Source: Candidatus Hermodarchaeota archaeon
GTDB lineage: Archaea > Asgardarchaeota > Lokiarchaeia > Sigyniarchaeales > SOKP01
Reading direction: 5' to 3'
NCBI GenBank assembly: GCA_048885925.1
Contig: JBHLLG010000003.1
Span: 47,323 to 111,322 of the forward strand
Length of the DNA stretch: 64,000 nt
The notes below the pieces were generated by a model that searched no databases, was not told where the DNA came from, and was given only the letters and a program-made list of their open reading frames with translations. The position numbers and the translations under genes are program-made. Below are positions 13,311 through 28,606 of the stretch, piece after piece (positions within the stretch are counted from its first letter, which is position 1; each line of letters starts with the position of its first letter).

Positions 13311-13772
13311 TTAACTTAATTTTACAACTTCAATATTGGAACTTTTTAAAAGATCTACTTTTACGATATTTTCCATGTCGTATCCTTCCTTGTAAATTAA
13401 ACGCTTAATTTTAGCATTAATAATTAGTTTTAAACAACTCATACAGGGAAATGTTGTAGTATAAAGGGAAGTATTACCATCTATTGCTGTTCCGTGAAGT
13501 GCTGCTTGAATAACGCAATTAATTTCTGCATGGACACCTCTACATAATTCTGGTTTGTCACCAGGCTTAAGATGCTTCCGAACACAAGTATCTAAAGTAC
13601 AATGAGATATACCCGATGGAGCACCATTGTATCCCGTTGATAAAATATGATTATCTTTAACAAGTACAGCTCCAACATTCCTTCTAATGCAAGTTGATCT
13701 CATGGAGATCACTTCTGCTATTTTCATAAAGTAATCATCCTTTGAAATTCTTTTTCTCATAGATTTACCCAT
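13311..13772 (-). CDS. dCMP deaminase family protein
   Basis: RSTC, TGYNG, HAEINC and PCMSC zinc-deaminase motifs. Confidence 0.9.
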   Translation of the reverse strand: MGKSMRKRISKDDYFMKIAEVISMRSTCIRRNVGAVLVKDNHILSTGYNGAPSGISHCTLDTCVRKHLKPGDKPELCRGVHAEINCVIQAALHGTAIDGNTSLYTTTFPCMSCLKLIINAKIKRLIYKEGYDMENIVKVDLLKSSNIEVVKLS

Positions 13773-13813
13773 TTCTAATAATCACTCTATATAAGTTAAA
13801 AGATTTTAGAATA

Positions 13814-14590
13814 TTAACTTCTTTTTATTTTCTCTTCCACAATAGTGACTACCCTTGGAAATACATCTCCTATTTTTTCATGAATAATAACTTCAGCCAT
13901 CAAATCCATATCAGTTTCCTGAATATTTATAATTGCTAATTTCGCTCCAATTGCTAAAGCTTTTTGGGGATAAAACGCAACGGGATAAACCACAAGGGAA
14001 GATCCAAGCACCAATAACAAATCACAAGTGGAGATCATATCATCTGCGGCTTCGAGTGTCTTAGATTCGAGAGGTTCACCGAAAAAGATCGCATTCGGTT
14101 TCAATAAACCTCTACAACTTTCACAGGAAGGGCTAAAATTTCCCTTCAGTACTTGATTTACCATAGTACTGATTTGATATATTTGCCCACAGGTCATGCA
14201 TTTAGCTTCATACGCATTTCCATGGAACTCAACGATATTTTTGGTCTTAGCTTTATGATGCAATCTGTCTATATTTTGAGTAAGAATTCCTTTCAATTTT
14301 CCAAGTTTTTGGAGCTTAGTTAGGGCTTTGTGTCCTTTATTTGGCCTTGCTTTAAAAATTTGCAAACCTGTTTCTAACATGAATTCTAAATTCTTTCCTT
14401 TATTCGCCACATAAGAATTTATTGAAGCAAATTCATACGGATCTACTTTTTCCCATAATCCAGTACCCGGTGACCGGAAATCAGCAATTCCGCTTTCAGT
14501 AGACATCCCTGCACCTGTTAATGCTACTATGTTTTTTGAATCAAGGATTAAGTTAGCTAATTTTTCAACTTTTTGTTCTAACAACTTCAT
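13814..14590 (-). CDS. cobB: Sir2-family NAD-dependent protein deacylase
   Basis: TGAGMSTESGIADFR, TQNID, HG, two CxxC, GSSL. Confidence 0.93.
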   Translation of the reverse strand: MKLLEQKVEKLANLILDSKNIVALTGAGMSTESGIADFRSPGTGLWEKVDPYEFASINSYVANKGKNLEFMLETGLQIFKARPNKGHKALTKLQKLGKLKGILTQNIDRLHHKAKTKNIVEFHGNAYEAKCMTCGQIYQISTMVNQVLKGNFSPSCESCRGLLKPNAIFFGEPLESKTLEAADDMISTCDLLLVLGSSLVVYPVAFYPQKALAIGAKLAIINIQETDMDLMAEVIIHEKIGDVFPRVVTIVEEKIKRS

Positions 14591-14681
14591 TTATTTATAA
14601 TTTTAATTTTATCAGATAAAAAGTAATAATAATTATATTGCCTTATAAAATGTTTTATAGTTTTATGATTTTATTGTATTA

Positions 14682-15503
14682 ATGAATATAGAAGAATTTA
14701 AACAGATTAAATATAAAAAAGAAGAGAATGGAATTTTAACCGTTACCTTAAACTGGCCTGAAAAGAAAAATGCACTTTCACCATTAGGACTCCTAGAACT
14801 CTACTATGCTGTAGATCATGCTGAAAAAGATGATCAAGTAAAAGTTATGATACTGACTGGATGTGAGGAAGCAGGAGCTTTTTCTTCAGGAGGTTACTTT
14901 TCAAATGAAATGTTAAAGGAAGTACCAGAGAAGTATAGGAATGAAATTAATTTAAGAGATATGGCATCAAAAAGGCTGTGTCTTAAGTTTTGGGATTTAC
15001 CAAAACCTGTAATATCAGTAATTAATGGTTTTGCAGTGGGTGGTGGATTTACACTTCCTGTAATTTGTTCAGATTTAATTTATATGGCGGAAGATGCATG
15101 GTGGGCACTATTTTTTGTAAAAAGAGCGGTAATGCCTGATTTTGCCACTAGCATTCTTTTACCTTTCATGATAGGATTTCATAAAGCTAAAGAACTGTTT
15201 TATTTTGGGGATCGGATGACAGCACAAGACGCGGAGAGATTAGGACTTGTCAATAAGATATTAGCTAAAGATAAATTAATGTCTTATGCAAGAAACCAAG
15301 CCTTAAGACTTATTCCTCCTAAGGGTCCCTCTCTTTCAATCAAATTAATGAAAAAGACCATTCATACGTATTTTAGGGAAATTATAGAAACCCAATTAAA
15401 TTTAGAAAATAAGATGTGGACTAAAGCTATTCAAAGTAAGGATTTTTCAGAATCTTTAAAAGCTTTGAAGGAGAAAAAAGATCCTTCCTTTATTGGAAAG
15501 TAA
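14682..15503 (+). CDS. Enoyl-CoA hydratase/isomerase (crotonase) family
   Basis: FSSGG, PKPVISVINGFAVGGG, AERLGLVN. Confidence 0.9.
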   Translation: MNIEEFKQIKYKKEENGILTVTLNWPEKKNALSPLGLLELYYAVDHAEKDDQVKVMILTGCEEAGAFSSGGYFSNEMLKEVPEKYRNEINLRDMASKRLCLKFWDLPKPVISVINGFAVGGGFTLPVICSDLIYMAEDAWWALFFVKRAVMPDFATSILLPFMIGFHKAKELFYFGDRMTAQDAERLGLVNKILAKDKLMSYARNQALRLIPPKGPSLSIKLMKKTIHTYFREIIETQLNLENKMWTKAIQSKDFSESLKALKEKKDPSFIGK

Positions 15504-15791
15504 CTTCATACTTATTTAAAGTGCAAAGGAACTATCAGTATTGATTTTTGATTTTGGATTAAGTCTATAAAAATTTTGATTTTTTGATCTAAGTTTTTTA
15601 TTAAGTGAATAATCTCTGATAAATGAAATAAAAAAAATTAATAACGATTATTATTATTTATTGAATATTATATAATAATAATTAATAATTCTTAAATAAG
15701 TCATCATTCTTAGCTAAGTTTAAACATTAGAAATGATGGATGATTGTTAATATTGGGGAAAATCCTTTAACCAAAATGGTGGGATGGTAAA

Positions 15792-16346
15792 ATTACGGAG
15801 AAAGTTACTAAATCATTTATTTATAAAGTTTGTATAGTAGGAGACGGTGGAGTAGGTAAAACCAGTATGGTTTTGAGATATTGTGAGAACACCTTTAAAG
15901 AAAATTATATAATGACTATTGGTTCTAATTTTTCGACAAAACAAATAGAATTAGAAGATTATCCAAACTATCTCATTCGCCTACAATTATGGGATCTTGC
16001 TGGACAAAAACATTTCAGCTTTGTTCGCCCACCATTTTATCGTGGTGCTAGTGCGATTGTATATACATTTGACATTACGCGAAGAAGTTCATTTCAGAAT
16101 ATTTTAAACTGGAAGAGTGAAGTGGAAAAAGTAATCGGTGATGGTAAACCAAGTATTTTAGTTGGAAATAAATTCGATTTAGCAGAAAAGGGGAATAGGG
16201 AAGTAGGAGAAGGAGATGGAGAAGCATTGAAGGATGAGATTAATGCTTTAGCTTATTTTGAAACTAGTGCCAAGGATGATATTAAAGTTGAGCCTGTATT
16301 TAAAACAATCACAATGGCAATTTTAGAACACACCAAAAAAATATAG
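15792..16346 (+). CDS. Rab-like small GTPase (probable non-canonical ATT start)
   Basis: G1 GDGGVGKT lies in frame upstream of the track ATG (15867). Also G2 TIG, G3 WDLAGQ, YRGA, G4 NKFD, G5 ETSAK. No C-terminal prenylation motif. The start position is uncertain. Confidence 0.88.
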   Translation: MTEKVTKSFIYKVCIVGDGGVGKTSMVLRYCENTFKENYIMTIGSNFSTKQIELEDYPNYLIRLQLWDLAGQKHFSFVRPPFYRGASAIVYTFDITRRSSFQNILNWKSEVEKVIGDGKPSILVGNKFDLAEKGNREVGEGDGEALKDEINALAYFETSAKDDIKVEPVFKTITMAILEHTKKI

Positions 16347-16427: not shown

Positions 16428-17147
16428 ATGTTTGGAACAGCAGGTAGGGCTTATGATCGGGCACTTACTGTTTTTAGTCCCGAAGGTCGCCTTTTTCAAG
16501 TAGAATATGCATTGGAAGCAGTAAGGCGTGGAACACTTGCGGTTGCTGTAAAATCTGAGCAGGATGTATGTTTAGCAGCTCAAATCAAAATACCTTCCAT
16601 TTTAATGGATTCTGATTCAATTGATAAAATTTTTCAAATAGATGAGCATATTGGAGTAGCAATTTCTGGATTACATGCTGACTCACGTGCTTTAATTAAT
16701 TATGCAAGAGTTCAAGCCCAATCATTCAGATTGACATATGATGAGCCTGTTCGTTTGAATATGCTAACCAAGGCAATTGCAGATTTAAAGCAGATGTATA
16801 CACAGTATGGTGGTATCCGTCCTTGGGGTTGTGCGCTTTTTTTCATCGGAATAGATGCAAGTGGTACACAAATTTATACAACCTCCCCCAGTGGAATCTA
16901 TAGGTCATTCAAAGCTTATGCTCTCGGTAGCGGTGAAGCAACTGCGCGAGAGTATTTAATAGAACATTATAAAGAAGATATGACTTTTGATGAGTTAATT
17001 AATTTATCTTTACAGGCATTAAAGGAATCTATTGATGAAGAGGCAACGAAGGAAAATATTCGCCTAGCGTATATTAAAGGTGACATCAAAAAATTTTATG
17101 TATGTAATAAACAAGAAATTGAAGGCTTTTTAGCCAAATTAACATAA
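16428..17147 (+). CDS. psmA: Proteasome alpha subunit
   Basis: YDRALTVFSPEGRLFQVEYA signature; YTQYGGIRPWG. Confidence 0.93.
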   Translation: MFGTAGRAYDRALTVFSPEGRLFQVEYALEAVRRGTLAVAVKSEQDVCLAAQIKIPSILMDSDSIDKIFQIDEHIGVAISGLHADSRALINYARVQAQSFRLTYDEPVRLNMLTKAIADLKQMYTQYGGIRPWGCALFFIGIDASGTQIYTTSPSGIYRSFKAYALGSGEATAREYLIEHYKEDMTFDELINLSLQALKESIDEEATKENIRLAYIKGDIKKFYVCNKQEIEGFLAKLT

Positions 17148-17256: not shown

Positions 17257-17652
17257 ATGGGGAAAAAGAAAAAGATTAGAGAGGACTTTGACGAGCTATT
17301 TAAAAAAGGCGATGAAAAGGGGATAAAAAAGATGTTAGATAAAAATCCGTGGTTACTCAATGAAGTTTCAACTACTTTAAATACAGGTATGGCTGAACAA
17401 AATGAAGTAATAGCAGCTTTAGGTGTAATGGAAGACGAGCTTGGAGGTCCTGTCCCAATTGATGAGATAGCATTTAGTTTAAGAGTTGATTTCAATATTC
17501 GTAAAAGTGATGATGAGATACATCAAATTCTTATGGGTATAGAAAAGTTAAATCTTGTAAAAAGAGATGCTAATGGATGGAGTTTGACTTATGAGGGGGG
17601 TAGAATTTGCGATGATTATCTTAACAAAAGTCTTGGAAAATTTGATTTATAA
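17257..17652 (+). CDS. Hypothetical protein with probable C-terminal winged helix
   Basis: VPIDEI...IHQILMGIEKLNLVKRDANGWSLTYEG resembles a wHTH recognition helix and wing. Confidence 0.65.
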   Translation: MGKKKKIREDFDELFKKGDEKGIKKMLDKNPWLLNEVSTTLNTGMAEQNEVIAALGVMEDELGGPVPIDEIAFSLRVDFNIRKSDDEIHQILMGIEKLNLVKRDANGWSLTYEGGRICDDYLNKSLGKFDL

Positions 17653-17777
17653 TTGATTAAATATTTATTTTCAGTTAATGATTTTTAAAATAAAACTAAA
17701 ATATTATATTAAATTTAAATTGAGAATAAAAAATATTAAATTCATTCTTAATTCTATTTAAAAAAGTGTTGAGGCTA

Positions 17778-20700
17778 ATGGAAGAGAGAAGGGAAGAAAA
17801 TTTCGATAAAGAATTTGATGAGGATGAGTTCGATCCAACAAAGGAAGCATTCTTTTCGGATATGATAGAAATGGAAGAAGAAATTGCTTCTGAAGCATAT
17901 GAATTAGTTGAGCATGCTATCAATCTAATAGAATCACAATATTACAACGATAGTATTGAAATTTTACGTCAAGCAATTGGATTATATACTCAAATTAACA
18001 GAGAAGAAGAGATTAAAGCTATAAATGATAAAATAGCAGAAATATATGTACTTAAAGAAAAAGCATTCAGAGAAGTTGAAATTGAATCTGAAAAAGCTGC
18101 TGAACCCGTAGAAGTACCTGAAGTAATTGATAAAAGTTCAATATTTGAAAAACAAGAGGTAATGAAAGAGTTTGAAGCAACTGAAGAGTCTAAAGCAATT
18201 GAAGAACATAAAGTGTTAAAAGATGCCATAAAGATTGCTGATTTAATGATCAATGCGGAAAATTTGTTAAAAGAAGCTCAAGAGTTAATTAACAACAATT
18301 ATTTCGAAGAAGCGCTCAGTAAATATGATGAAGTGGAAACAATTTATACAGAATTAGGAAAATCAAGTGAGATAGATAATTTATACAAATTAATTGAAGA
18401 TTGTTATAACCGAAAGGCTAAATTCTTACGAAGTATTAAAAAAGAAGAAATTAGAGAAGAAATAGACACGAGTGTAAAAGTGGAAGCACAATCAACAGAA
18501 GATCTTTTAAAGGAAAAAAGATTAAAGGAATATTTTGAAAATAAAAAGAGAGAAGAGGAGATCTCCTCTAAAGCTTACCAATTACTTGATAAAGCAGCTG
18601 AATTAACCACACAGCACAAATATGACAAAGCTTTAGAATTTTATGAAAAAGGAGCTAATTTATTTGGAGAATTAAATTGGACATATGAAGTTAGAAAAGT
18701 TCAAGATACGATTTTTCAATTAAAAATAGAAAAAGCAAGATATATACAAAGGCTAGAAGAGGAAAGAATGAAACCAGAGAAAGTGGTTGAAACTAAAGAA
18801 GAAATTACTGCGCAACAGGTAACAGAAATTGAGGAGCAGGATAGAATTGCTCAAATAGAAAAGTTAAGAGAAATAGAATTTCAAAAAATGGAACAAGAAT
18901 TTTTTAAAGCTCAAATTGATAATATGGCCACTGAAGCTGCTAGAATGGCACGTGAATATGAATTAGCTATGCAAAAAGCGATTAAGAAAGGAGAACTAGA
19001 AGAAGAATGTATTTACCCAAAAGTCATTGAAATTTATAAAAAAATAAGGGAATTACTTGTTGATAAGGGATGGAATAAAGAAGCAACGATCTATGATGAT
19101 ACGATAGATATCTATATTCAAAAGTTTGAACAAGATAAAAGAATTAGGCAAATAGAAGCTGAAAAAATCAAAAAGCAACACGAAGCTGAAAAGATGCTGA
19201 AACTAAAAAAAGAGGACATTGAAATTCACCTCAGCGAAGAACAAATAAAAGCTAAAGAGATGCAACAACAAAAAGAGATAGAAATACAAAATGTTCGAAA
19301 TCAATTAAATGATATGTCAAAAAGAGCTGATCGGTTAGCAAGAGAGTATGAGCTTGCATTAAGAAAAGGTAAATTTGAGTTAAAATGTCCTTATCCTCAG
19401 ATAATTAATATATATAAGAAAGCTAAATATATGGCACAAGAGAGAGGATGGGATACAGATATAGCAATTTTTTCAAGTCAAATTTTTACATATAAAGAAA
19501 AGTTAGAAAAAGATAAAAAGTTAAGAGAAATAGAAGCGGAAAAAGCACGGAAACAAGAAGAAGTTGAGAAGGCTTTTAAAGTTAAAAGAGAAGAACCAAA
19601 AGTTTCTTTAGATATCGAGAAGTTAAAATTATTAGAAGAACAAAGAAAATTAGAAGAAGAAAAAGAAGATTTTGAGGATATGGTAAATGCAATGATAAAT
19701 CGAGCAGAAAAAATTGCTCGAGAATATGATACAGATATGAAAAAAGCCATAAAGAAAGGTAGATTGGCACAAAATCCTCCATTCTTAAAGATCATAAATA
19801 TTTATGAGAAAGTAAAACAAATGTTCCTTGAAAGGGGTAGAAATGAAGAAGCAATTGCTTATGGGAATCAAATAAATTTTTATTCTCAAAAATTAGAACA
19901 AGATAATAAATTACGAGAAGTGGAAGCCAAAAAAGCTGAAAGGGAAAAAGCACTAGAAGAAATGCATAAAGTTGATAGAAAAGTTGAAATAGATGACCAA
20001 AGATTAAAAGCTTCAGAGAAAAAAAAGGAAGAAGAAGAATTTGAGAAATTTATTTCTGAAAATGTCAATATGGCAGAAAAGATGGTACGAGATTTTGAAA
20101 TTGCTATGCGAAAAGCTTATAGAAAAGGGGAAATATTGGAAACTACACCATATTCTAAAGTTATCGACATTTATAAAAATCTTCAAGAGAAAGTCTATGC
20201 TAGGGGTTGGAGAGAGCAATCTGAAGTATACATAAATCAAATTAAAATTTATCAAGATAAATTAGAAAAACATGAAAAATTGTTAGAAGTTGAAGTTCAA
20301 AAAGCTCAAAAGGAAAAAGGATTAGAAGAAATGCATAAAGTAGAAAAGGAGAGTGAAGCTGATACAAAAAGATTGAGTAAAATTGAAAGAAAAAAAGAAG
20401 AAAAAGAATTTGAGAAAAATATTGCTGAAAATGTCAGTATAGCAGAAAAAATGGTGAGAGATCATGAAATTGCTATGAGAAAATCATATCGAGAAGGAAA
20501 AATTCTAGAAAGCACACCATATCCAAAAGTTATTGAAATATATAAAGAAATTAGAGAAAAAATTTATGCTAAAGGTTGGAAAGAACAAGCAAAAGTATTT
20601 GCAAATCAAATAAAAATTTATCAGGAGAAGTTAGATAAACATAAAAATCTCCTTGAAATCGAAGCTCAGAAAGCACAAAAACAAAAAGAACTAGAAGAAA

Positions 20701-23117
20701 TGCATAAAGTAGAAAAGAAGAGTGAAGCTGATACAAAAAAATTGAGCATTATTGAAGAAAAAAAAAAAGAAGAAAAAGAATTTGAAAAGCATATTTTAGA
20801 ACTGGTTAATAAAGCAGAAAAACTAGAACGAGAATTTGATTCATCTCTGAAAAAAGCGATAAAAAAAGGTAAGGTAATTGAGTTAACACCATATCCAGAA
20901 ATAATTGAGATATATAAACAAATTAAAGATGAATTGGATGAGAAGGGCTGGGTAGATCAATCGCAAATTTATTTAAACCAAATAAAAATCTATCAGGAGA
21001 AATTAGACAAGCATAAAATTTTGCTTGATAAAGAATCAGAAAAAGCAGAAAAAGTAAAAGAACTTGAAGAACTGAAGAAGGCAGGTAAAAAAGAAGTTAA
21101 ACCATTCAAACCAGAAAGAATTAAAGAACTTGAAGCTGAAAAAGAGGAGGACATATTATTAGACAAAGCGATGAGTCTTATTGATGAGACAGAAAAAGAA
21201 GTTAAAAGTTATGAATTAAGCATAAGGAAAGACATTTTGATGTATGTAAGTCCTTATGAGAAAGCAATCTTTAATTATGAAGAAGCAAGAAAATTATTCC
21301 AAAAAATTGGATGGATTGATGAGGCTAATCGATTAATTAAAACTATCAAATTTTACAAGGATAAGAAAGAAAAAGATGATAAATTAAGAGAGATTGAACA
21401 AAAGAAGTTAGAGAAACCAGAAGTTGAATTAGAAGCTGTAAAGATAGAACTTGATAAGGATTTTCTTGAAAGTCAGAAAAGATTAAGAGAATTTGAAAAA
21501 AAAGAAAAAGAAGCCGATGAAAAAGCAGTTAAAGTATTGTCTTTAATTCAAAATGCTGAAAAGATGGCTCAAGAATATGAATTAAAACTAAAATCGGGAA
21601 TATTTGATTATGAAGCACCATATGAAAAAATTATTGAGATTTATCGTGTTGCTCGCAAAAAATTTGAAGAAATAAATTGGAAAGAAGAATCAGCGAAATT
21701 AATAGATACAATAAATTTTTATAAAGAAAAATTAGAGCAAGATAAGAAGATACGAGCTTTGGAGCTTGAAAAAGTAAAAAAGCGGGAAAAAGAATTACTC
21801 CTTCAACAAAAATTATTAGAACAGGCACGCCAAGAACAGGAAAGATTACTGCAAAAGCGAAAAGAATCTTTACAAGTAAAAAAAGAACGTATTGCACAAT
21901 TTGAGACGGAGAAAGATAAAGCATTTCGTTTAATGGATCAAGCTAAACGTGAATTAAGACTTAATAATTTTGATGAAGCTATTGATATTTATAAGGAAAG
22001 TGAAAAAATGTTTATAGATATGAAGTGGGAAGAAGGAATTATGATGGTTAGAGATTCAATTACAATGATTATTAATAAGAAAAAAGCTTATGAGCTTGAA
22101 CAAAAAGCAGTAGAAGAAAGAAAAGTTGAAGAGCTTGAGTTTGAAGAAAAATTAGAAGAGAAATTAGCTGAAGCGCGCGAAGTAAGAAAAAAGCAACAAG
22201 AAGAGAAACGAAGAGAATTTTTAAAAGTTCAGAGGGAAAAAGAGCGAGAAGAAAAAATCTCAGATGAGGCATATCAACTTTTAGAAGAAGGTACAAATTT
22301 TATGGACCGTAAAAAATTCTCTGAAGCATTCGAGAAATATATGGCAGCAAGAGACTTATTTGAAGAAATAGGGTGGCAAAGAGAGGTTTCAAGAATTAAT
22401 AACGAGCTCCTATTTAAACTTAAAAGAGAAGAAAAACAAGCTGAGATTCTAGAAGAAATAAAGTTGAAAAAAATTGAAGAGGAGAAAGAATTAGAATTAA
22501 TAAAAGAAGAAACGAAAAAAGAACATGAAGAAATGGAAAAGAAGAGAAAAGAAGAAAAAAGAAAGCTTGTAAAGGAAGAATATGACAGAAAAATAGCTGT
22601 TCAACTCAATAAAGCAGAAAAATTAATAGAAAGTTATAGGTATAATGAAGGGATTGTAATAATCAAAGAAGAAATCCAAAAATTAAATATACCAGAAAAG
22701 GAATCTGAAATTAAAGAACTTCATGAAAAAATTGAAAATTTAGGAACCCTTTCTCATATTCCATTAATTACTATTGAAATATCAGGTGAAGAAATTCAAA
22801 ATGCGAATTTTAAAGCAGCTTATACTGCATTAGATGAAGCTCAAATATCTATAATCAATAAAAATTACAAGAAAGCTATATCTGAGTTAAACGAAGCAAA
22901 ATATAATCTTGAAAAGGTTAAAATTGGTAAAAGATTTGTAAAAGAGATTGACGAAAAAATTGATCAATACAGAGAAAAACTTGGAAGAAAACCAAAAGAA
23001 CCAGAAATTGAAGTACTCACTGACGAAGAAACTCAAAAGATTAAAGCAAGAATCATTGCTAGAAGGGAATTGAGGAGAAATAAGGTTTTAGATCTTTTAA
23101 AAAAAAGTTCAAAATAA
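17778..23117 (+). CDS. Giant all-alpha repeat protein (~120 aa units of an MIT/SNAP-like helical bundle plus E/K-rich helix)
   Basis: Recurrent A..M.REYE...KG...PY..II.IY.......GW......QI..Y..KL motif; ATG 17778 is preceded by GAGG. Confidence 0.8.
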   Translation: MEERREENFDKEFDEDEFDPTKEAFFSDMIEMEEEIASEAYELVEHAINLIESQYYNDSIEILRQAIGLYTQINREEEIKAINDKIAEIYVLKEKAFREVEIESEKAAEPVEVPEVIDKSSIFEKQEVMKEFEATEESKAIEEHKVLKDAIKIADLMINAENLLKEAQELINNNYFEEALSKYDEVETIYTELGKSSEIDNLYKLIEDCYNRKAKFLRSIKKEEIREEIDTSVKVEAQSTEDLLKEKRLKEYFENKKREEEISSKAYQLLDKAAELTTQHKYDKALEFYEKGANLFGELNWTYEVRKVQDTIFQLKIEKARYIQRLEEERMKPEKVVETKEEITAQQVTEIEEQDRIAQIEKLREIEFQKMEQEFFKAQIDNMATEAARMAREYELAMQKAIKKGELEEECIYPKVIEIYKKIRELLVDKGWNKEATIYDDTIDIYIQKFEQDKRIRQIEAEKIKKQHEAEKMLKLKKEDIEIHLSEEQIKAKEMQQQKEIEIQNVRNQLNDMSKRADRLAREYELALRKGKFELKCPYPQIINIYKKAKYMAQERGWDTDIAIFSSQIFTYKEKLEKDKKLREIEAEKARKQEEVEKAFKVKREEPKVSLDIEKLKLLEEQRKLEEEKEDFEDMVNAMINRAEKIAREYDTDMKKAIKKGRLAQNPPFLKIINIYEKVKQMFLERGRNEEAIAYGNQINFYSQKLEQDNKLREVEAKKAEREKALEEMHKVDRKVEIDDQRLKASEKKKEEEEFEKFISENVNMAEKMVRDFEIAMRKAYRKGEILETTPYSKVIDIYKNLQEKVYARGWREQSEVYINQIKIYQDKLEKHEKLLEVEVQKAQKEKGLEEMHKVEKESEADTKRLSKIERKKEEKEFEKNIAENVSIAEKMVRDHEIAMRKSYREGKILESTPYPKVIEIYKEIREKIYAKGWKEQAKVFANQIKIYQEKLDKHKNLLEIEAQKAQKQKELEEMHKVEKKSEADTKKLSIIEEKKKEEKEFEKHILELVNKAEKLEREFDSSLKKAIKKGKVIELTPYPEIIEIYKQIKDELDEKGWVDQSQIYLNQIKIYQEKLDKHKILLDKESEKAEKVKELEELKKAGKKEVKPFKPERIKELEAEKEEDILLDKAMSLIDETEKEVKSYELSIRKDILMYVSPYEKAIFNYEEARKLFQKIGWIDEANRLIKTIKFYKDKKEKDDKLREIEQKKLEKPEVELEAVKIELDKDFLESQKRLREFEKKEKEADEKAVKVLSLIQNAEKMAQEYELKLKSGIFDYEAPYEKIIEIYRVARKKFEEINWKEESAKLIDTINFYKEKLEQDKKIRALELEKVKKREKELLLQQKLLEQARQEQERLLQKRKESLQVKKERIAQFETEKDKAFRLMDQAKRELRLNNFDEAIDIYKESEKMFIDMKWEEGIMMVRDSITMIINKKKAYELEQKAVEERKVEELEFEEKLEEKLAEAREVRKKQQEEKRREFLKVQREKEREEKISDEAYQLLEEGTNFMDRKKFSEAFEKYMAARDLFEEIGWQREVSRINNELLFKLKREEKQAEILEEIKLKKIEEEKELELIKEETKKEHEEMEKKRKEEKRKLVKEEYDRKIAVQLNKAEKLIESYRYNEGIVIIKEEIQKLNIPEKESEIKELHEKIENLGTLSHIPLITIEISGEEIQNANFKAAYTALDEAQISIINKNYKKAISELNEAKYNLEKVKIGKRFVKEIDEKIDQYREKLGRKPKEPEIEVLTDEETQKIKARIIARRELRRNKVLDLLKKSSK
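19962..20746 (+). repeat. Intragenic tandem repeat with 369 bp period
   Basis: GAAATGCATAAAG recurs with its ATG at 19962, 20331 and 20700; 20323-20377 and 20692-20746 match at 53 of 55 nt. Confidence 0.85.
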
Positions 23118-23164: not shown

Positions 23165-23386
23165 TTATATTAATAGATTTTCTTGAAGTTCACTTTCTAC
23201 TTCCGATTCTATTGCGCTGGGGGCAAGATTCCGGTTTACTGATTCCTCTATCAAATATTCTGTTTTAATTAGATCTCTTATTGCTACGCGAATAGCTTCT
23301 GACCTATTAGGGAATTTTCCGTCAACTACAAGTAATTCTAAGACTTTTAAATAAGACTCAGGTAAGTTTACTGATATTAATTTCAT
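23165..23386 (-). CDS. Ribbon-helix-helix (CopG/Arc/MetJ) regulator, CdrS-like
   Basis: MKLISVNLPESY...LV..GKFPNRSEAIRVAIRDLI; likely start ATG 23386. Confidence 0.85.
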   Translation of the reverse strand: MKLISVNLPESYLKVLELLVVDGKFPNRSEAIRVAIRDLIKTEYLIEESVNRNLAPSAIESEVESELQENLLI

Positions 23387-23688
23387 TAAAATCATGAATT
23401 TATTTGATTTATTGATGAATATACATATCACCTTAGTAATATTTAAAGATTTAGTGGAAAAAGACCCCAAGAAATCCGACAAAATGTTAAAATGCCTTTA
23501 TATTTTAATCTAGGGTGATTCTTCACAATTATTTAGATAAAAAGTCTTGTTTTTAAACATTTAATAGATTATTGTATTTTTATTCAATCCAAAAATTTTT
23601 ATATATGCCTTAGATGTAACACGTAACATCGACTAAAAATAATATAATCAAAAATAAATTCATAAAAATTAAATATATGTAGCGAGGA

Positions 23689-24012
23689 ATGAATATGTCT
23701 AGTATTGATACCCAATTAAAAGAACATCTAAAGAGTGGGGGTGATTGGGAAAAAATGGAGACTCCCGTTCCGGGTGTTTTCGTAGTTAAAGTCCCTGCAA
23801 CAAAAACAAAGCCAGCACTACTATTTCTAGAGATTAATCCTTTAAAAGATGATGGTAAACCACTAAAAAAGAGAGGGTTATTTGTTGGCTCTAAAGAAAT
23901 GTTATTGAAATTTAGTGAAGCATTGAATGATGACAAGACTTTTCAGTTGATTGGAGAACTAGAGAAAATTAATCCTGAAATTAAAACAAGAGCTAAAAAA
24001 TTGAAAATGTAA
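23689..24012 (+). CDS. Conserved archaeal hypothetical protein (possible PC4-like fold)
   Basis: DWEK.ETPVPGVFVVKVP...LEINP...GKP.KKRGL; the fold assignment is an inference. Confidence 0.7.
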   Translation: MNMSSIDTQLKEHLKSGGDWEKMETPVPGVFVVKVPATKTKPALLFLEINPLKDDGKPLKKRGLFVGSKEMLLKFSEALNDDKTFQLIGELEKINPEIKTRAKKLKM

Positions 24013-24219: not shown

Positions 24220-24504
24220 ATGTCTGAAGAGGATGGAGTTCATTGCATTGTTTGTGGAAAAGATCAGTTCTCTTTAGCCCACGATGAATGGATGAGAAGA
24301 GCTTTTCCTTTTGTAGAACAAGGACAACTAAAAATGTGTTCTGGTTGCGGAGCCAAATATCTTATATGTGAGAGTTGCGGAGGTCTATACTGCCGTATAC
24401 ACCCTGCTCTTGAAAGTTGGGAGCTTCCAGACAAATGTCCTAAGTGTGGATGGTTAAATGAAAGCGTTAGAGCTTGGGATGGAACCTCTGCTCGCCATTT
24501 TTAA
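24220..24504 (+). CDS. Multi-CxxC zinc-finger protein
   Basis: CIVC, CSGC, CESC and CPKC in 94 aa. Confidence 0.8.
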   Translation: MSEEDGVHCIVCGKDQFSLAHDEWMRRAFPFVEQGQLKMCSGCGAKYLICESCGGLYCRIHPALESWELPDKCPKCGWLNESVRAWDGTSARHF

Positions 24505-25178: not shown

Positions 25179-26150
25179 ATGAGTTTAGAAACACCTTGGG
25201 TTGAAAAATATCGGCCTGAAACATTTGATGATATTGTAAGTCAGAGTATTGCGATTAATAACCTAAAAGAATTTGTAAAAACTACGGATATACCTCATCT
25301 GATTTTTACGGGTCCTGCAGGAACTGGAAAAACTAGTACCGCCTTAATAATCGCAAAAAGTTTTCTTAATGAAGAAGAATTTGATACAAACCTACTAGAA
25401 TTGAATGCTTCTGACACCGTACGGATAGATTTTGTAAGAAATGTTCTTAAGAGTTTTGTAAATCAACATTTAGTTAAAAATGGGTCTTTAAAGTTTGTGA
25501 TTTTAGATGAAGCTGATAATATTCCTTCACAAGTTCAGCAAGCTCTTAGGAGAATTATTGAAAAAGCATCAACTAATATAAAGTTCATACTTTTATGTAA
25601 TTATATTAATAGGATTATAGATCCAATAGTATCTCGATGCGCTGTATTTAGATTTGTAACTTTACCTAAAGAAAAAATAGTAGAAAGATTAAGATATATA
25701 GCAAAAAAGGAGAAATTAAAAATACCGTCTAATCAATCAGAAGAATTCTTCAGTCAATTATATTTCATTTCTGGAGGAGATTTAAGGAAAGCAATCAATA
25801 GTCTCCAAATGGCTGTTGCACTTGAACTTTTAGATAATTTAGACATTAACGAGATATTAAGAATTTCTGGATTCTTAGACAAAGAAACATTGAAAAGTTT
25901 AATTTTTTCTCTTAAGAGCAAAGATTATAGGAAATCAAGAGAAATTCTTAGTTCGATTGAAACTTTTGATAGTCGAAATTTCATAAGACAAATATCAGAG
26001 TACATACCTTCATTAAATATTTCACCTGAAAATATTATTAGTTTAAAAGCCTTTATTGGAGATATAGATTATCGAATAAGCCAAGGTGCTGATGAACAGG
26101 TTCAGATTTCAGCTCTGTTATCGGCAATCATTGAGAATATTCAATCTTGA
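25179..26150 (+). CDS. rfcS: Replication factor C small subunit
   Basis: PWVEKYRP, GPAGTGKT, ELNASD, ILDEAD, SRC, GDLRKAIN. Confidence 0.95.
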   Translation: MSLETPWVEKYRPETFDDIVSQSIAINNLKEFVKTTDIPHLIFTGPAGTGKTSTALIIAKSFLNEEEFDTNLLELNASDTVRIDFVRNVLKSFVNQHLVKNGSLKFVILDEADNIPSQVQQALRRIIEKASTNIKFILLCNYINRIIDPIVSRCAVFRFVTLPKEKIVERLRYIAKKEKLKIPSNQSEEFFSQLYFISGGDLRKAINSLQMAVALELLDNLDINEILRISGFLDKETLKSLIFSLKSKDYRKSREILSSIETFDSRNFIRQISEYIPSLNISPENIISLKAFIGDIDYRISQGADEQVQISALLSAIIENIQS

Positions 26151-26192
26151 TTATTTATTAGAAAATTTAAAGAGAGAAAGAGATAGTTAAAT

Positions 26193-27239
26193 ATGATTGA
26201 ACAAATTCCGATTTGGCGAATTAAGTATCATCCAAAAAGTTTAGACGAAGTTTGCGGCAGAGATGAGGTAAAAGAGACTTTAAAACGTATGATTCACCAA
26301 AGAAACTTTCCACATTTATTATTTATTGGTTCAAAAGGTATAGGAAAAACTTCAATTGCTCAATTATTCTCAAAGGAGTTTCTTGGTAATAATTATAATG
26401 CAAATTTTAAATTAGTTTATGCTGATGTTCCTTTAAGCGAAGAAGAGAGAACTGAAGCAAGATCTGATGCATATGTTTCTACAAGTAAAATTGGAAGTAT
26501 AGCAGGAAAAAGGATAACAACACCCGCGTTTATTCAGGCTAGAGTTAAACCCTTTGTACAATTGAAAGTGTTAGGAGATGCCCCATTTAAAATTCTAATT
26601 GTAAAAAATTTTGAAGCTTTAGGTGGGGATCAACAAGGCTTTAGAAGACTAATGGAAAAGTATGGCACAAATTGCAGAATGATATTGATTAGCACGAAAA
26701 TTTCAAGTATCATTGATCCTATTGTTAGTAGATGCCAAATTTTCTTAATTTCTAGAATTAAGTTTAACAATTTCAACGAATTAATTAAAAAAATCGCTAA
26801 AAAGGAATCTTTAGAAATTTCTAATGAGGTAAGTGAAATTTTGTACAAAATATCTGATGGAAAAATATCTCGAGCAATTGATATTTTACAATTATGTAGT
26901 ATTTCAGAAAACAAAATAGATTCTGAAAAGATTTATGAAACATCTCAATTTTTTCATAATGAACTTATACAAAGTCTTTTAATGATTGCTTTCAAAGGAG
27001 ATTTCCCTAAAGCTCGAGAATTATCACGCAAAATCCTTTCTAATTATAAATTTGATCTGAGCGAGTTCTTTAAACTTTTAATCAATGAATTAAACAAATT
27101 GCCTTTAAGTAAATTTGCACGGATTAAATTAATAAATTTTATTGCAGATTCTGATTTTAGAGCAATTGATGGGAGAGATAATGATATTCAAATATCTGGT
27201 CTTTTATCAAAAATATGTTTATTTTCGGATTATATGTGA
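26193..27239 (+). CDS. Second RFC small subunit with degenerate Walker B
   Basis: WRIKYHP, GSKGIGKT, Walker B replaced by LIVKNFEAL, RRLMEKY, SRC retained. Confidence 0.85.
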   Translation: MIEQIPIWRIKYHPKSLDEVCGRDEVKETLKRMIHQRNFPHLLFIGSKGIGKTSIAQLFSKEFLGNNYNANFKLVYADVPLSEEERTEARSDAYVSTSKIGSIAGKRITTPAFIQARVKPFVQLKVLGDAPFKILIVKNFEALGGDQQGFRRLMEKYGTNCRMILISTKISSIIDPIVSRCQIFLISRIKFNNFNELIKKIAKKESLEISNEVSEILYKISDGKISRAIDILQLCSISENKIDSEKIYETSQFFHNELIQSLLMIAFKGDFPKARELSRKILSNYKFDLSEFFKLLINELNKLPLSKFARIKLINFIADSDFRAIDGRDNDIQISGLLSKICLFSDYM

Positions 27240-27250
27240 GGATTTAAATC

Positions 27251-28606
27251 ATGTCAAAAAAGAAAGTTGAGATTCCGTGGGTGGAGAAATATCGTCCAAA
27301 AAGTATAAAAGACATGGCTTTACCTTCAGCACGGATGGGTGGTCAAAGGGTTAAATTAGCTGAGCAATTAATGAACTTTATTGAAAACTTTTTCCTAGAA
27401 AGAAGAAGAATTAATAAAGAAAACAGAGAGATTCGCGAATTTAATAGAACCGTTATTGAAAAAGACCAAAAAGAAGAATTGAAAATTCCCTCTGAAAAAG
27501 CAGCAATTTTATTAGAAGGACCTCCCGGGATTGGAAAAACTTCTATTGTTTATGCTCTTGCGAATGACTTAAATATGGAAGTAATAGAAACTAACGCATC
27601 AGATACGCGAACAAGAGCTACTTTAGAAAGAAGGTTGAAAGAAACTGTTAAATCTCGTGGAATTATGGATTATATAACAGAATCAAAAGAGAAACTTATA
27701 CTTATTGATGAAATTGATGGGATATATGGTGTTCAAGACAGAGGTGCTATTCCTACCGTAATCGATTTAATTGAGAATACTCAGTTTCCTATTATAATGT
27801 GTTCAAATGAATATAAAACAAATCTACAACCACTCTATAATAAAATATTGAGATATGAAGTTCATCCTTTAGCTAAGAAAGAAGTAATTAAAATTACACA
27901 AAACATTCTCAAGAAAGAAAAAATCACAAATCTGAAAGATGATGATTTGGAATTAATAATTGAAAAGAATAATGGAGATTTGAGAGGAGTGATAAATGAT
28001 GTTCAAGGAATATGTCAAGGCGGAATAGAAGAAGATACTAAGGAATTGATTCTGAGTCTCCACCGTGATAATATTGAAGAAATTTTCTCATTAATTAGAG
28101 ATTTGTTTAAAATATCCACATTAAGGGAAGCTCGAAACTTAACTGATAAATCTGATGTTGATTATAACTTTCTATACAAATGGATAAATGAAAATCTAGT
28201 TTTATTCATGAAATCTAACAGAGAACTTTCTGATGCTTTTGAAAATCTTTCATTAGCAGATGAAATATTTGGAAGAATTCGTATTAACCAATATTGGGGA
28301 TTATTACCTTATTTTTTTGACCTTTTTGCAGGAGGTGTTGCATTATCACGAAAAGAGACACCTATTGCCAAGGGATTTCAAAGAGTTGTTTTTCCTCGAT
28401 ATTCTTCTGGAACTTATTTTTCTTTAAGTAATAATGAAAAAGAATTTATTGGGAAACTCAAAAGAAAATTTGAAATTTCTCAAGTTGATTTTATTCAAGA
28501 ATTCCTTCCATTTTTAAAAATTTTATGTGGAGCTTCGCGAAAACAATTAAAATCTGTGAGTGATTGGTTAGATTTAGATGCAAAAGAAAAGAAAATATTG
28601 AAATAA
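27251..28606 (+). CDS. rfcL: Replication factor C large subunit
   Basis: PWVEKYRP, GPPGIGKT, ETNASD, LIDEIDG, GDLRGVIND, WINEN, LSLAD. Confidence 0.93.
   Translation: MSKKKVEIPWVEKYRPKSIKDMALPSARMGGQRVKLAEQLMNFIENFFLERRRINKENREIREFNRTVIEKDQKEELKIPSEKAAILLEGPPGIGKTSIVYALANDLNMEVIETNASDTRTRATLERRLKETVKSRGIMDYITESKEKLILIDEIDGIYGVQDRGAIPTVIDLIENTQFPIIMCSNEYKTNLQPLYNKILRYEVHPLAKKEVIKITQNILKKEKITNLKDDDLELIIEKNNGDLRGVINDVQGICQGGIEEDTKELILSLHRDNIEEIFSLIRDLFKISTLREARNLTDKSDVDYNFLYKWINENLVLFMKSNRELSDAFENLSLADEIFGRIRINQYWGLLPYFFDLFAGGVALSRKETPIAKGFQRVVFPRYSSGTYFSLSNNEKEFIGKLKRKFEISQVDFIQEFLPFLKILCGASRKQLKSVSDWLDLDAKEKKILK

Follow-up and report, generated by a model that had tools for sequence, protein, structure and literature searches.

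The window analysed here, a stretch of 64,000 nucleotides from contig JBHLLG010000003.1 of a Candidatus Hermodarchaeota archaeon, encodes on its forward strand a giant protein of 1,779 amino acids (aa) that is composed of 15 repeat units joined by charged linkers. From the profile comparisons and structural models, we interpret the unit as a TPR-like three-helix module with the MIT domain as its nearest domain-level relative, and the protein appears to set this known module into an undescribed giant array, as no counterpart to its family's 13-20 modules on spacers was found in the literature. The works covered included PMC10936438, bioRxiv 10.64898/2026.10.28.762692 and PMC7240154, the covered parts of which hold no description of the giant family. 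The gene is real and constrained, and the length of its product is tunable, with the central array gaining or losing whole units of about 123 aa between species. With moderate confidence, from the models and by analogy with known modular proteins, the giant can be viewed as a soluble, cytoplasmic, flexible and multivalent scaffold of adjustable length.

Architecture and conservation of the repeat protein

The gene lies in a single open frame, 17766..23117 on the forward strand, which would yield 1,783 aa if read from a GTG. The ATG at 17778 is in line with the first methionine of 24 orthologues (MEEKREEDF...) and is therefore regarded as the right start, in agreement with the preliminary description of this DNA, which had proposed the same frame and start from the sequence alone. 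Glutamate and lysine make up 19.1% and 16.2% of the residues, respectively, alongside 10 tryptophans and 3 cysteines, and the protein as a whole is strongly acidic, with a net charge of -39. Since the Kyte-Doolittle hydropathy in 19-aa windows peaks at 0.78, with no transmembrane segment found, and the Pfam scan of the protein yields neither an ATPase nor any second domain (the lack of a transmembrane segment and of an ATPase being as previously stated), the protein reads as soluble and cytoplasmic. The gene and the parts of its product are as follows.

17778..23117, + strand: repeat-protein gene, stop codon included, 1,779 aa from the ATG
17778..17873, + strand: acidic N-terminal segment (aa 1-32), net charge about -13, motif FDPTKEAFFSD
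17874..18077, + strand: U1, short, the most conserved unit (aa 33-100), 29.9 bits; predicted bundle at residues 20-107
18231..18443, + strand: U2, short (aa 152-222), 22.3 bits; predicted bundle at residues 137-227
18552..18767, + strand: U3, short (aa 259-330), the best MIT match
18903..19157, + strand: U4, long with insert (aa 376-460), 55.9 bits
19281..19535, + strand: U5, long (aa 502-586), 49.5 bits
19665..19913, + strand: U6, long, with Arg688 for Trp (aa 630-712), 51.4 bits
20043..20291, + strand: U7, long (aa 756-838), 59.3 bits; in the model of aa 734-979
20412..20660, + strand: U8, long (aa 879-961), 67.9 bits; in the model of aa 734-979
20784..21032, + strand: U9, long (aa 1003-1085), 59.2 bits
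21147..21395, + strand: U10, long (aa 1124-1206), 54.7 bits
21513..21761, + strand: U11, long (aa 1246-1328), 62.4 bits
21897..22112, + strand: U12, short (aa 1374-1445), 25.0 bits
22248..22457, + strand: U13, short (aa 1491-1560), 32.6 bits
22575..22757, + strand: U14, degenerate short (aa 1600-1660), 10.4 bits, weak
22791..22997, + strand: U15, degenerate short (aa 1672-1740), 9.5 bits, weak
22998..23114, + strand: C-terminal polybasic tail (aa 1741-1779), ...KARIIARRELRRNKVLDLLKK...

The units were delimited by alignment around the tryptophan anchors and follow an arrangement of three short, eight long and four short. The short units U1-U3 and U12-U15 span 61-72 aa, and the long units U4-U11 span 83-85 aa and all carry an insert of 13-17 aa (REYE..KKG) ahead of the PY motif, so that the eight insert-bearing central units of the preliminary description are recovered. 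Likewise, translation places all ten tryptophan codons where they had been reported (18678, 19071, 19449, 20208, 20577, 20949, 21312, 21678, 22026 and 22374, 116-131 aa apart), together with the arginine codon at nucleotide 19839 (Arg688) that stands in place of the conserved tryptophan in the sixth unit. The earlier count of about 11 units plus more degenerate terminal ones gives way to 15, of which U14 and U15 are degenerate. Each unit was scored with a hidden Markov model (HMM) built from the other 14 and compared with 300 composition-matched shuffles. Thirteen of the 15 units reach 22-68 bits against a shuffle maximum of at most 13.7, with none of the 300 shuffles attaining the score of the unit. 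U14 is marginal at 10.4 bits against a shuffle maximum of 9.1 (0/300 shuffles reach it), as is U15 at 9.5 bits, which is reached by 1/300 shuffles. At the DNA level the array is visible as a 369-bp period (123 aa) with 3.2 copies at 75% identity in 19890-21071.

A search with the whole protein identified 274 homologues at E<=1e-3 among 7,999 candidates scored, and the best 120 of the 274 are 961-2,267 aa long; where a source is named, it is Promethearchaeota or Lokiarchaeota, apart from a few metagenome bins labelled as other Asgard groups. In a stricter first look at 399 genomes of the phylum, the counts of which represent a floor, clear orthologues are present in 127/133 genomes of the archaeon's own family (f1) and weaker matches in 18/19 genomes of families f2-f4 of the same order; none of the 7 genomes from other families of the class has a match at this stringency, and the rest of the phylum contributes weak matches in 4 genomes. 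A profile of a unit pair reveals diverged giants of 2,274 (genome G138), 2,417 (G135) and 2,547 aa (G143) in 3/3 complete f3 genomes. In other orders of the class, only weak unit-like matches in assorted proteins are seen. The matches beyond the order are few and weak, and a restriction of the family to Loki-type Asgard archaea is supported.

Among 11 orthologues, the mean column conservation is 0.62-0.87 in the units, with U1 at 0.87, compared to 0.32-0.75 in the linkers; gaps hardly occur in the unit columns, and the lengths of the central linkers are maintained. Unit maps follow a fixed plan of three short, N long and four short units throughout the genus, and the open frames differ by -2, -1, 0, +1, +2 or +3 steps of 123 aa around 1,760 aa. 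In the f3 giants, the central units are near-identical 70-aa copies with a period of 127 aa (L090:11943-14438 in genome G138; L091:10640-11992 in genome G135), which points to recent amplification or homogenisation of that array because of this near-identity.

The structure of two stretches was predicted with AlphaFold2 (AF2), using alignments drawn from the orthologous loci and the internal repeats. In the model of aa 734-979, covering U7 and U8 (84 rows), each unit consists of helices of 46, 17 and 42 aa, and a low-confidence break at aa 853-861 lies between the units (mean predicted local distance difference test (pLDDT) score 82, predicted template modelling score (pTM) 0.42). The model of aa 1-345 (25 rows) displays three separate three-helix bundles with a core pLDDT above 90 and a pTM of 0.30, in which the linkers at 108-142 and 226-238 have a pLDDT below 50. 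Three helices per unit, as earlier proposed, are seen in both models, and the separate bundles, the low-confidence hinges and the pTM of 0.30-0.42 fit the elongated cytoplasmic beads-on-a-string of discrete bundles that the preliminary description had envisaged. From the AF2 confidence values we infer that the bundles are independent of each other. In the models, the long helices 1 and 3 project beyond each bundle and together with the hinge form the linker. The linkers that keep the bundles apart in this picture are charged, mostly helical and some 40-60 residues long, with a hinge midway.

Between the unit boundaries, the linkers are 36-51 aa long and consist of D/E/K/R residues to 44-72% (mean 58%) and of the bulky hydrophobic residues ILMFVWY to 17-29% (mean 23%). 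Opposite-charge pairs at i/i+3 and i/i+4 occur at 0.41 per residue compared to 0.33 ± 0.018 in shuffles, and no consistent heptad was found in the linkers, with a best a/d occupancy of 0.33-0.55. As modelled, the linkers are charged, predicted helices that are neither textbook single alpha-helices nor clear coiled coils. The suggestion of clean single-alpha-helix linkers is not supported by the linker composition and the modelled mid-linker break, and a coiled-coil dimer appears unlikely for want of a consistent heptad.

Both ends of the protein are specialised, judging from the alignments, with an acidic head followed by an almost invariant U1 at one terminus and a conserved polybasic tail at the other. 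Across 25 orthologue N-termini, residues D19, T21, K22, A24, F25, F26 and D28 do not vary. The FDPTKEAFFSD motif is found, in strict or relaxed form, in 9/17 loci; it is shared by most genera of f1 and absent from genus g2 and family f3. The C-terminal tail has the sequence ..RIAARREERRKKVLDLL in f1 and ..ERKRRRREARKK in f3. Of 17 giants (14 from f1, 3 from f3), 16 have a basic cluster within their last 30 aa, and every one of the 17 tails carries a net positive charge.

Relationship of the units to MIT and TPR domains

In the Pfam comparison, the best family is MIT (PF04212, gathering cut-off 30 bits), which U3 matches with 27.0 bits at E 4.7e-6, followed by U12 with 19 bits and U13 with 15 bits, and the long units give nothing relevant. 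U3 also matches TPR_1 with 17.3 bits and TPR_2 with 13.4 bits, below the cut-offs of 27-28, and SNAP likewise gives a weak match among the units. Among the best 120 of the 274 homologues, PF04212 is precomputed in 46 and a TPR family in 29. A profile of 52 short units compared to PDB sequences finds the MIT domain of VPS4A at E 6.3e-5 over 49 positions, and also consensus TPR proteins at a summed E of 2e-11 with no single stretch significant, the latter match being confined to a 20-residue motif at profile positions 18-37. With the long-unit profile, the PDB sequences yield no more than designed proteins and a weak match to an archaeal Vps4-like MIT (E 0.052). When aligned with hhalign to a reference of 30 Asgard Vps4 MIT domains, for which reversed-MIT controls give 0.6-2.1%, U2 scores 89%, U3 68%, U13 55% and all short units together 81%. 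Within the giant, hhalign links short to long units at 94%, and it links both types to the units of the f3 giants at about 99%.

The predicted fold of the N-terminal units agrees with these matches. In the VIA comparison of the N-terminal model, at least seven of the best 50 rows are solved MIT domains aligned over nearly the whole chain at Z 8.7-9.8, values that helical bundles commonly reach, and comprise those of MITD1, spartin, NRBF2, an archaeal Vps4-like protein, yeast Vps4, VPS4A and spastin; five of the seven have a root-mean-square deviation (rmsd) of 1.6-2.4 Å, and the other two 4.1 and 4.4 Å. U3 superimposes on MITD1 (4a5x_B) with Z 9.8 and an rmsd of 2.0 Å over 62 aligned residues, and U1 on the archaeal Vps4-like MIT (2w2u_B) with Z 9.0 and 1.6 Å over 63. 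For U1/U3, the corresponding values are Z 9.3, 2.4 Å and 70 residues with spartin, Z 8.9, 1.9 Å and 59 with VPS4A, and Z 8.7, 1.9 Å and 66 with spastin. Foldseek places LGN/Pins TPR domains first for the N-terminal model (E 8.2e-4, probability 1.0), in alignments with a template modelling (TM) score of 0.2 and an rmsd of 27-30 Å, which amounts to a local hairpin likeness without a shared superhelix. For the two-unit central model, Foldseek finds nothing in the PDB at E<=1e-3, with MIT rows only at E about 4, and the wide VIA search returns no significant match, the best being a designed protein at Z 9.2.

In a library of 1.84 billion representative proteins, the short-unit profile has 4,745 matches at E<=1e-3, 126 of them at E<=1e-30. 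The top matches are multi-unit proteins with 2-25 matched stretches, and the lower-ranked ones are ordinary STAND- or CHAT-TPR proteins; summed Pfam scores for a sample of 20 library matches assign TPR families to 18 and MIT to 5. The preliminary description had allowed for its units belonging to a family widespread outside the Asgard archaea, which is so only in the trivial sense that the unit is part of a universal TPR-like helical class. Its statement that the terminal units resemble MIT, SNAP or TPR hairpins is supported, with the Pfam, VIA and PDB profile matches in agreement. MIT, which Pfam files in the TPR clan, is a plausible family for the terminal units from both their sequences and models, and the central units represent a derived subtype with a longer first helix.

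Neighbouring genes, paralogue and ESCRT genes

The genes that surround the giant in the window are listed below.

15867-16346, + strand: Ras-family GTPase as called from the first ATG, upstream of the giant
16428-17147, + strand: proteasome alpha, upstream
17257-17652, + strand: 131-aa gene, directly upstream in 14/14 f1 and 3/3 f3 loci
23165-23482, - strand: ribbon-helix-helix (RHH) gene, convergent with the 3' end of the giant; Pfam RHH_1
23689..24012, + strand: 107-aa gene, downstream, beside the giant in 14/14 f1 and 3/3 f3 loci
24220-24504: zinc-ribbon gene, 94 aa
24687-25154: GNAT acetyltransferase, preceding the replication factor C (RFC) genes
25179-28606, + strand: three consecutive RFC-type AAA+ genes (323, 348 and 451 aa)

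The gene order in the 14 f1 loci runs from the GTPase through proteasome alpha, the 131-aa gene, the giant, the RHH gene on the opposite strand, the 107-aa gene, the zinc-ribbon gene and the GNAT gene to the three RFC genes. Proteasome alpha is found near the giant in 13/14 of these loci, and in 7/14 an additional 3-5 kb or so separates it from the 131-aa gene. Beside the f3 giants, only homologues of the 131-aa gene (39-50% identity) and the 107-aa gene (50-58%) remain; because it is lost there, the adjacency to the GTPase and the proteasome gene is lineage-specific synteny, and neither was retained as a functional partner of the giant. The GTPase and proteasome alpha genes had been correctly named in the preliminary description as lying upstream on the same strand; the winged-helix gene that it placed there corresponds to the 131-aa open frame, for which no Pfam, NCBIfam or PDB match was found, as was also the case for the 107-aa neighbour.

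In the ESM Atlas, the two small proteins retrieve unnamed archaeal clusters only, with DUF4364 at 0.87 as a lead at most. Small proteins from other archaeal phyla are similar to the 107-aa protein (score 0.92-0.94), so its gene is probably not one dedicated to the giant. The 131-aa protein, a single-copy one, is spread through the class, occurring in 139/399 genomes, in families f1 and f3-f7 and none elsewhere. As it is also present without the giant, its gene is older than the adjacency and need not be a dedicated partner; the notion of an obligate partner is weakened by its class-wide occurrence and by three loci of other families where it has no giant beside it. In family f4 (L098 of genome G281, L099 of genome G280), a homologue of the zinc-ribbon gene directly follows that of the 131-aa gene, an arrangement from which the giant, the RHH and the 107-aa genes may have inserted between two once-adjacent genes.

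The RHH gene matches NCBIfam CdrS at E 5.9e-10 with 39 bits (cut-off 100) and weakly the aCcr1 family, and it may encode a cell-cycle-type regulator. It is kept in 13/14 f1 loci, in one of them about 6.8 kb away and 43% identical, and is not found beside the f3 giants. The order of the RFC and GNAT genes is conserved across family f1. The GTPase frame called from the ATG at 15867 begins at position 15 of the Pfam Ras model, and a P-loop (KVCIVGDGGVGKTS) is encoded in frame upstream of it; within 15771-16346 (+), no ATG, GTG or TTG occurs after the stop codon at 15768-15770 and ahead of the P-loop. The same pattern is present in 3/6 orthologues checked (L038, L046 and L042), and the gene probably uses a non-canonical start that naive annotation would miss, truncating the protein.

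The same genome carries a paralogue of 2,125 aa on contig C40 (7049-13426, + strand; L100:7049-13426) with about 18 short-type units at a period of about 115 aa, for which summed Pfam scores, with weak matches added, reach 70 bits for TPR_2 and 47.8 bits for MIT. Its units are thus more MIT/TPR-like than those of the giant in the window; in hhalign, they are 99.1% related to the short units and 91% to Asgard Vps4 MIT. A Ras GTPase gene and a RACo-like gene lie upstream of the paralogue, and a ThiF/E1-like gene (13583-15166) followed by a UQ_con/E2 gene (16498-17019) downstream. The E1-like gene follows the paralogue in 6/6 related genomes, the E2 gene is present in 3/6 stretches, and the other flanking genes are kept in most.

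The ESCRT genes of the genome lie on contigs C1 and C2, and the giant on C3. They encode a Vps4 with a bona fide MIT domain (57 bits) and two Snf7-family proteins, one of which lies at C2:135818-136414. In the locus at C1:240473-243211, a Ras-like GTPase gene (240473-241024) adjoins those for ESCRT-III (241178-241816) and Vps4 (241991-243211), and about 10 kb from it, C1:230561-231103 on the reverse strand encodes a protein of 180 aa that contains a single unit-like domain (23 bits, E 1.2e-5).

Candidate roles and comparison with known systems

As a multivalent scaffold, the giant would work through its individual bundles in the manner of MIT and TPR modules, with a groove on each bundle accepting a short motif, helical or peptide. 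Weak on their own, these many sites would jointly produce strong binding to a repeating or polymeric partner, be it a filament, a coat or a membrane-bound array, with the two ends anchoring the chain and the number of units setting its reach or valency. The extended span would be very roughly 100-170 nm, by our own estimate from 15 bundles and 14 helical linkers at 0.15 nm per residue. A narrower version, in which MIT-derived modules read a polymer by avidity (ESCRT-III, an actin-like or other filament, or a membrane coat) and the protein acts as a tether or ruler anchored at its ends with a reach set by module number, appears rather improbable.

Several observations weigh against the scaffold reading and the MIT relationship behind it. 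First, the Pfam MIT scores of 20 bits for the whole protein and that of its best unit, U3, both stay under the cut-off, and the hhalign matches to Vps4 MIT span only helices 1-2 (32-41 columns). Next, the eight central units, which form the part that varies in number, have no MIT signal (hhalign 0.9%), and the structural scores, with Z no higher than 11, are within the VIA range below about 13 that is common for helical bundles. Furthermore, the low pTM may reflect uncertainty of the models rather than true flexibility, and the linkers, 23% of whose residues are bulky and hydrophobic, could associate with one another or with another chain. Finally, the synteny is uninformative on the role of the giant, as even the 131-aa gene, the only class-confined neighbour shared with f3, has no giant beside it in the three other-family loci.

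An alternative is that of a spectrin-like mechanical element, a passive elastic rod or spring that would stiffen or space the envelope or protrusions without specific ligands anywhere along the chain. The period of 116-131 aa, the three-helix units and the conserved tryptophan are all reminiscent of spectrin repeats, and the linker lengths are conserved among orthologues; weak plectin/plakin spectrin rows appear in Foldseek and talin rod rows in VIA. However, no Pfam spectrin match is found at E<=0.01, the plectin/spectrin rows in Foldseek have E 1.1-4.9 and TM scores of 0.13-0.25, the helices of 46, 17 and 42 aa contrast with three roughly equal ones, and the model shows a break instead of a continuous helix. 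The Pfam scan also finds no actin-binding or membrane-binding domain at either end. The spectrin-like suggestion of the preliminary description, with no Pfam match and Foldseek E values of 1 or more, is thus unlikely to be correct.

The giant has also been considered as a reader or tether of ESCRT-III, with MIT-like bundles binding the C-terminal MIT-interacting motif (MIM) helices of the two ESCRT-III proteins of the genome and avidity allowing it to bundle, measure or recruit the polymer. Pfam, profile comparison and fold all place the short units nearest to MIT, the genome provides the Vps4 and Snf7-family proteins described above, the latter ending in conserved amphipathic helices (KIAELEKELKRLK), and Asgard MIM1-like motifs are described in PMC7240154. 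On the other hand, the giant is neither in nor near the ESCRT locus, the unit HMM misses the genome's own Vps4 MIT at E<=1e-3, the MIT signal is missing from the central units, and the ESCRT genes are phylum-wide (MIT matches in 60/61 genomes) whereas the giant is confined to one order; the covered part of the ESCRT survey PMC10936438 makes no mention of such a protein. Nothing was found that ties the giant to ESCRT-III, nor any sign of the ESCRT-III or GTPase binding that the preliminary description had suggested. Co-folding of aa 130-345 (U2-U3, 25 rows) with the C-terminal 70 residues (13 rows) of the ESCRT-III encoded beside Vps4 gave 0.15 and 0.14 compared to a mark of 0.32, in a run made without controls whose scores count neither for nor against the idea. 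By analogy with MIT proteins such a role is conceivable, yet improbable.

A scaffold organising the ubiquitin- or proteasome-linked machinery of protein modification or degradation would be suggested by the C40 paralogue, which adjoins the E1-like gene and, further on, the E2 gene, and by the location of the giant near proteasome alpha in most f1 loci. This synteny is all within one family and may be inherited gene order, the proteasome gene is set apart in half of the loci and absent beside the f3 giants, and the giant itself contains no ubiquitin-related domain in Pfam, which makes this role very unlikely. A scaffold associated with nucleic acid or chromatin, held by the polybasic tail and acting with the small upstream protein, would agree with the Arg/Lys tail conserved across both families and with the putative winged-helix protein, the CdrS-like RHH gene and the RFC genes as neighbours. 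The strong acidity of the whole giant argues against it, as do the absence of the RHH and RFC genes beside the f3 giants and a winged-helix fold of the 131-aa protein that Pfam and PDB comparisons do not confirm; the basic tail would equally suit acidic membranes or acidic proteins, and there is little to recommend this possibility. Finally, an ordinary continuous TPR solenoid with the repeats stacked in one superhelix, which the preliminary description had itself raised as a contrary outcome, may be dismissed as most unlikely, since the likeness to consensus TPR proteins comes down to the 20-residue motif, the first-ranked LGN/Pins alignments to a local hairpin and the typical TPR proteins of the library to weaker relatives, whereas AF2 places three helices per unit in separate bundles, not a stack, with 36-51 charged residues between them.

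Loki-type Asgard archaea serve as models for the origin of eukaryotic cell architecture, and their parts lists for the cytoskeleton and membrane remodelling are short. The giants are among the largest soluble proteins of these genomes and are built from an MIT/TPR-like three-helix bundle, the kind of module with which eukaryotes recognise helical motifs, those of ESCRT-III included. Should the protein prove to be a ruler that reads a polymer, it would be a prokaryotic counterpart of the eukaryotic giant scaffolds, made from the domain by which eukaryotes recognise ESCRT-III. Its partners, if found, could show how these cells arrange filaments, membranes or the machinery of protein modification across distances of 100 nm. 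If the protein were a passive spacer, it would offer a clean natural case of length evolution by gain and loss of whole modules.

The giant can be compared with several known systems. In the rods of spectrin, plakin and talin, helical bundles are likewise strung into a long chain that repeats every 120 aa or so, with a conserved tryptophan and a length set by repeat number; the giant differs from them in its unequal helices, its hinged charged linkers and the lack of a significant sequence or fold match. ER/K single alpha-helices occur as spacers in myosin VI/X and caldesmon, and the linkers resemble them in being charged, predicted as helical and enriched in opposite-charge pairs at i/i+3 and i/i+4, and differ in their composition, with only 58% of charged residues against 23% of bulky hydrophobic ones, and in the break seen in the model; by this analogy, a role as spacers is plausible for the linkers. 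With SNAP/Sec17 the units share the weak Pfam match, and gamma-SNAP is among their PDB matches. The repeats of the TPR clan have the same A..A...(N/Y)(F/Y)..A(I/L)..Y..A motif that is present in helices 1-2 of the units; the units of the giant form no contiguous 34-aa repeats and no superhelix, with the bundles being 36-51 residues apart. The MIT domains of Vps4/CdvC, MITD1, spastin, spartin and NRBF2 are likewise isolated three-helix bundles of about 70 aa. Known MIT proteins have one or two copies of the domain, as in the tandem pair of calpain-7, which is itself among the PDB-sequence and Foldseek matches of the units. In contrast, the giant has no AAA ATPase or other catalytic domain and strings 15 copies along long charged spacers, with the central ones carrying an insert of 13-17 aa and their MIT signal gone.

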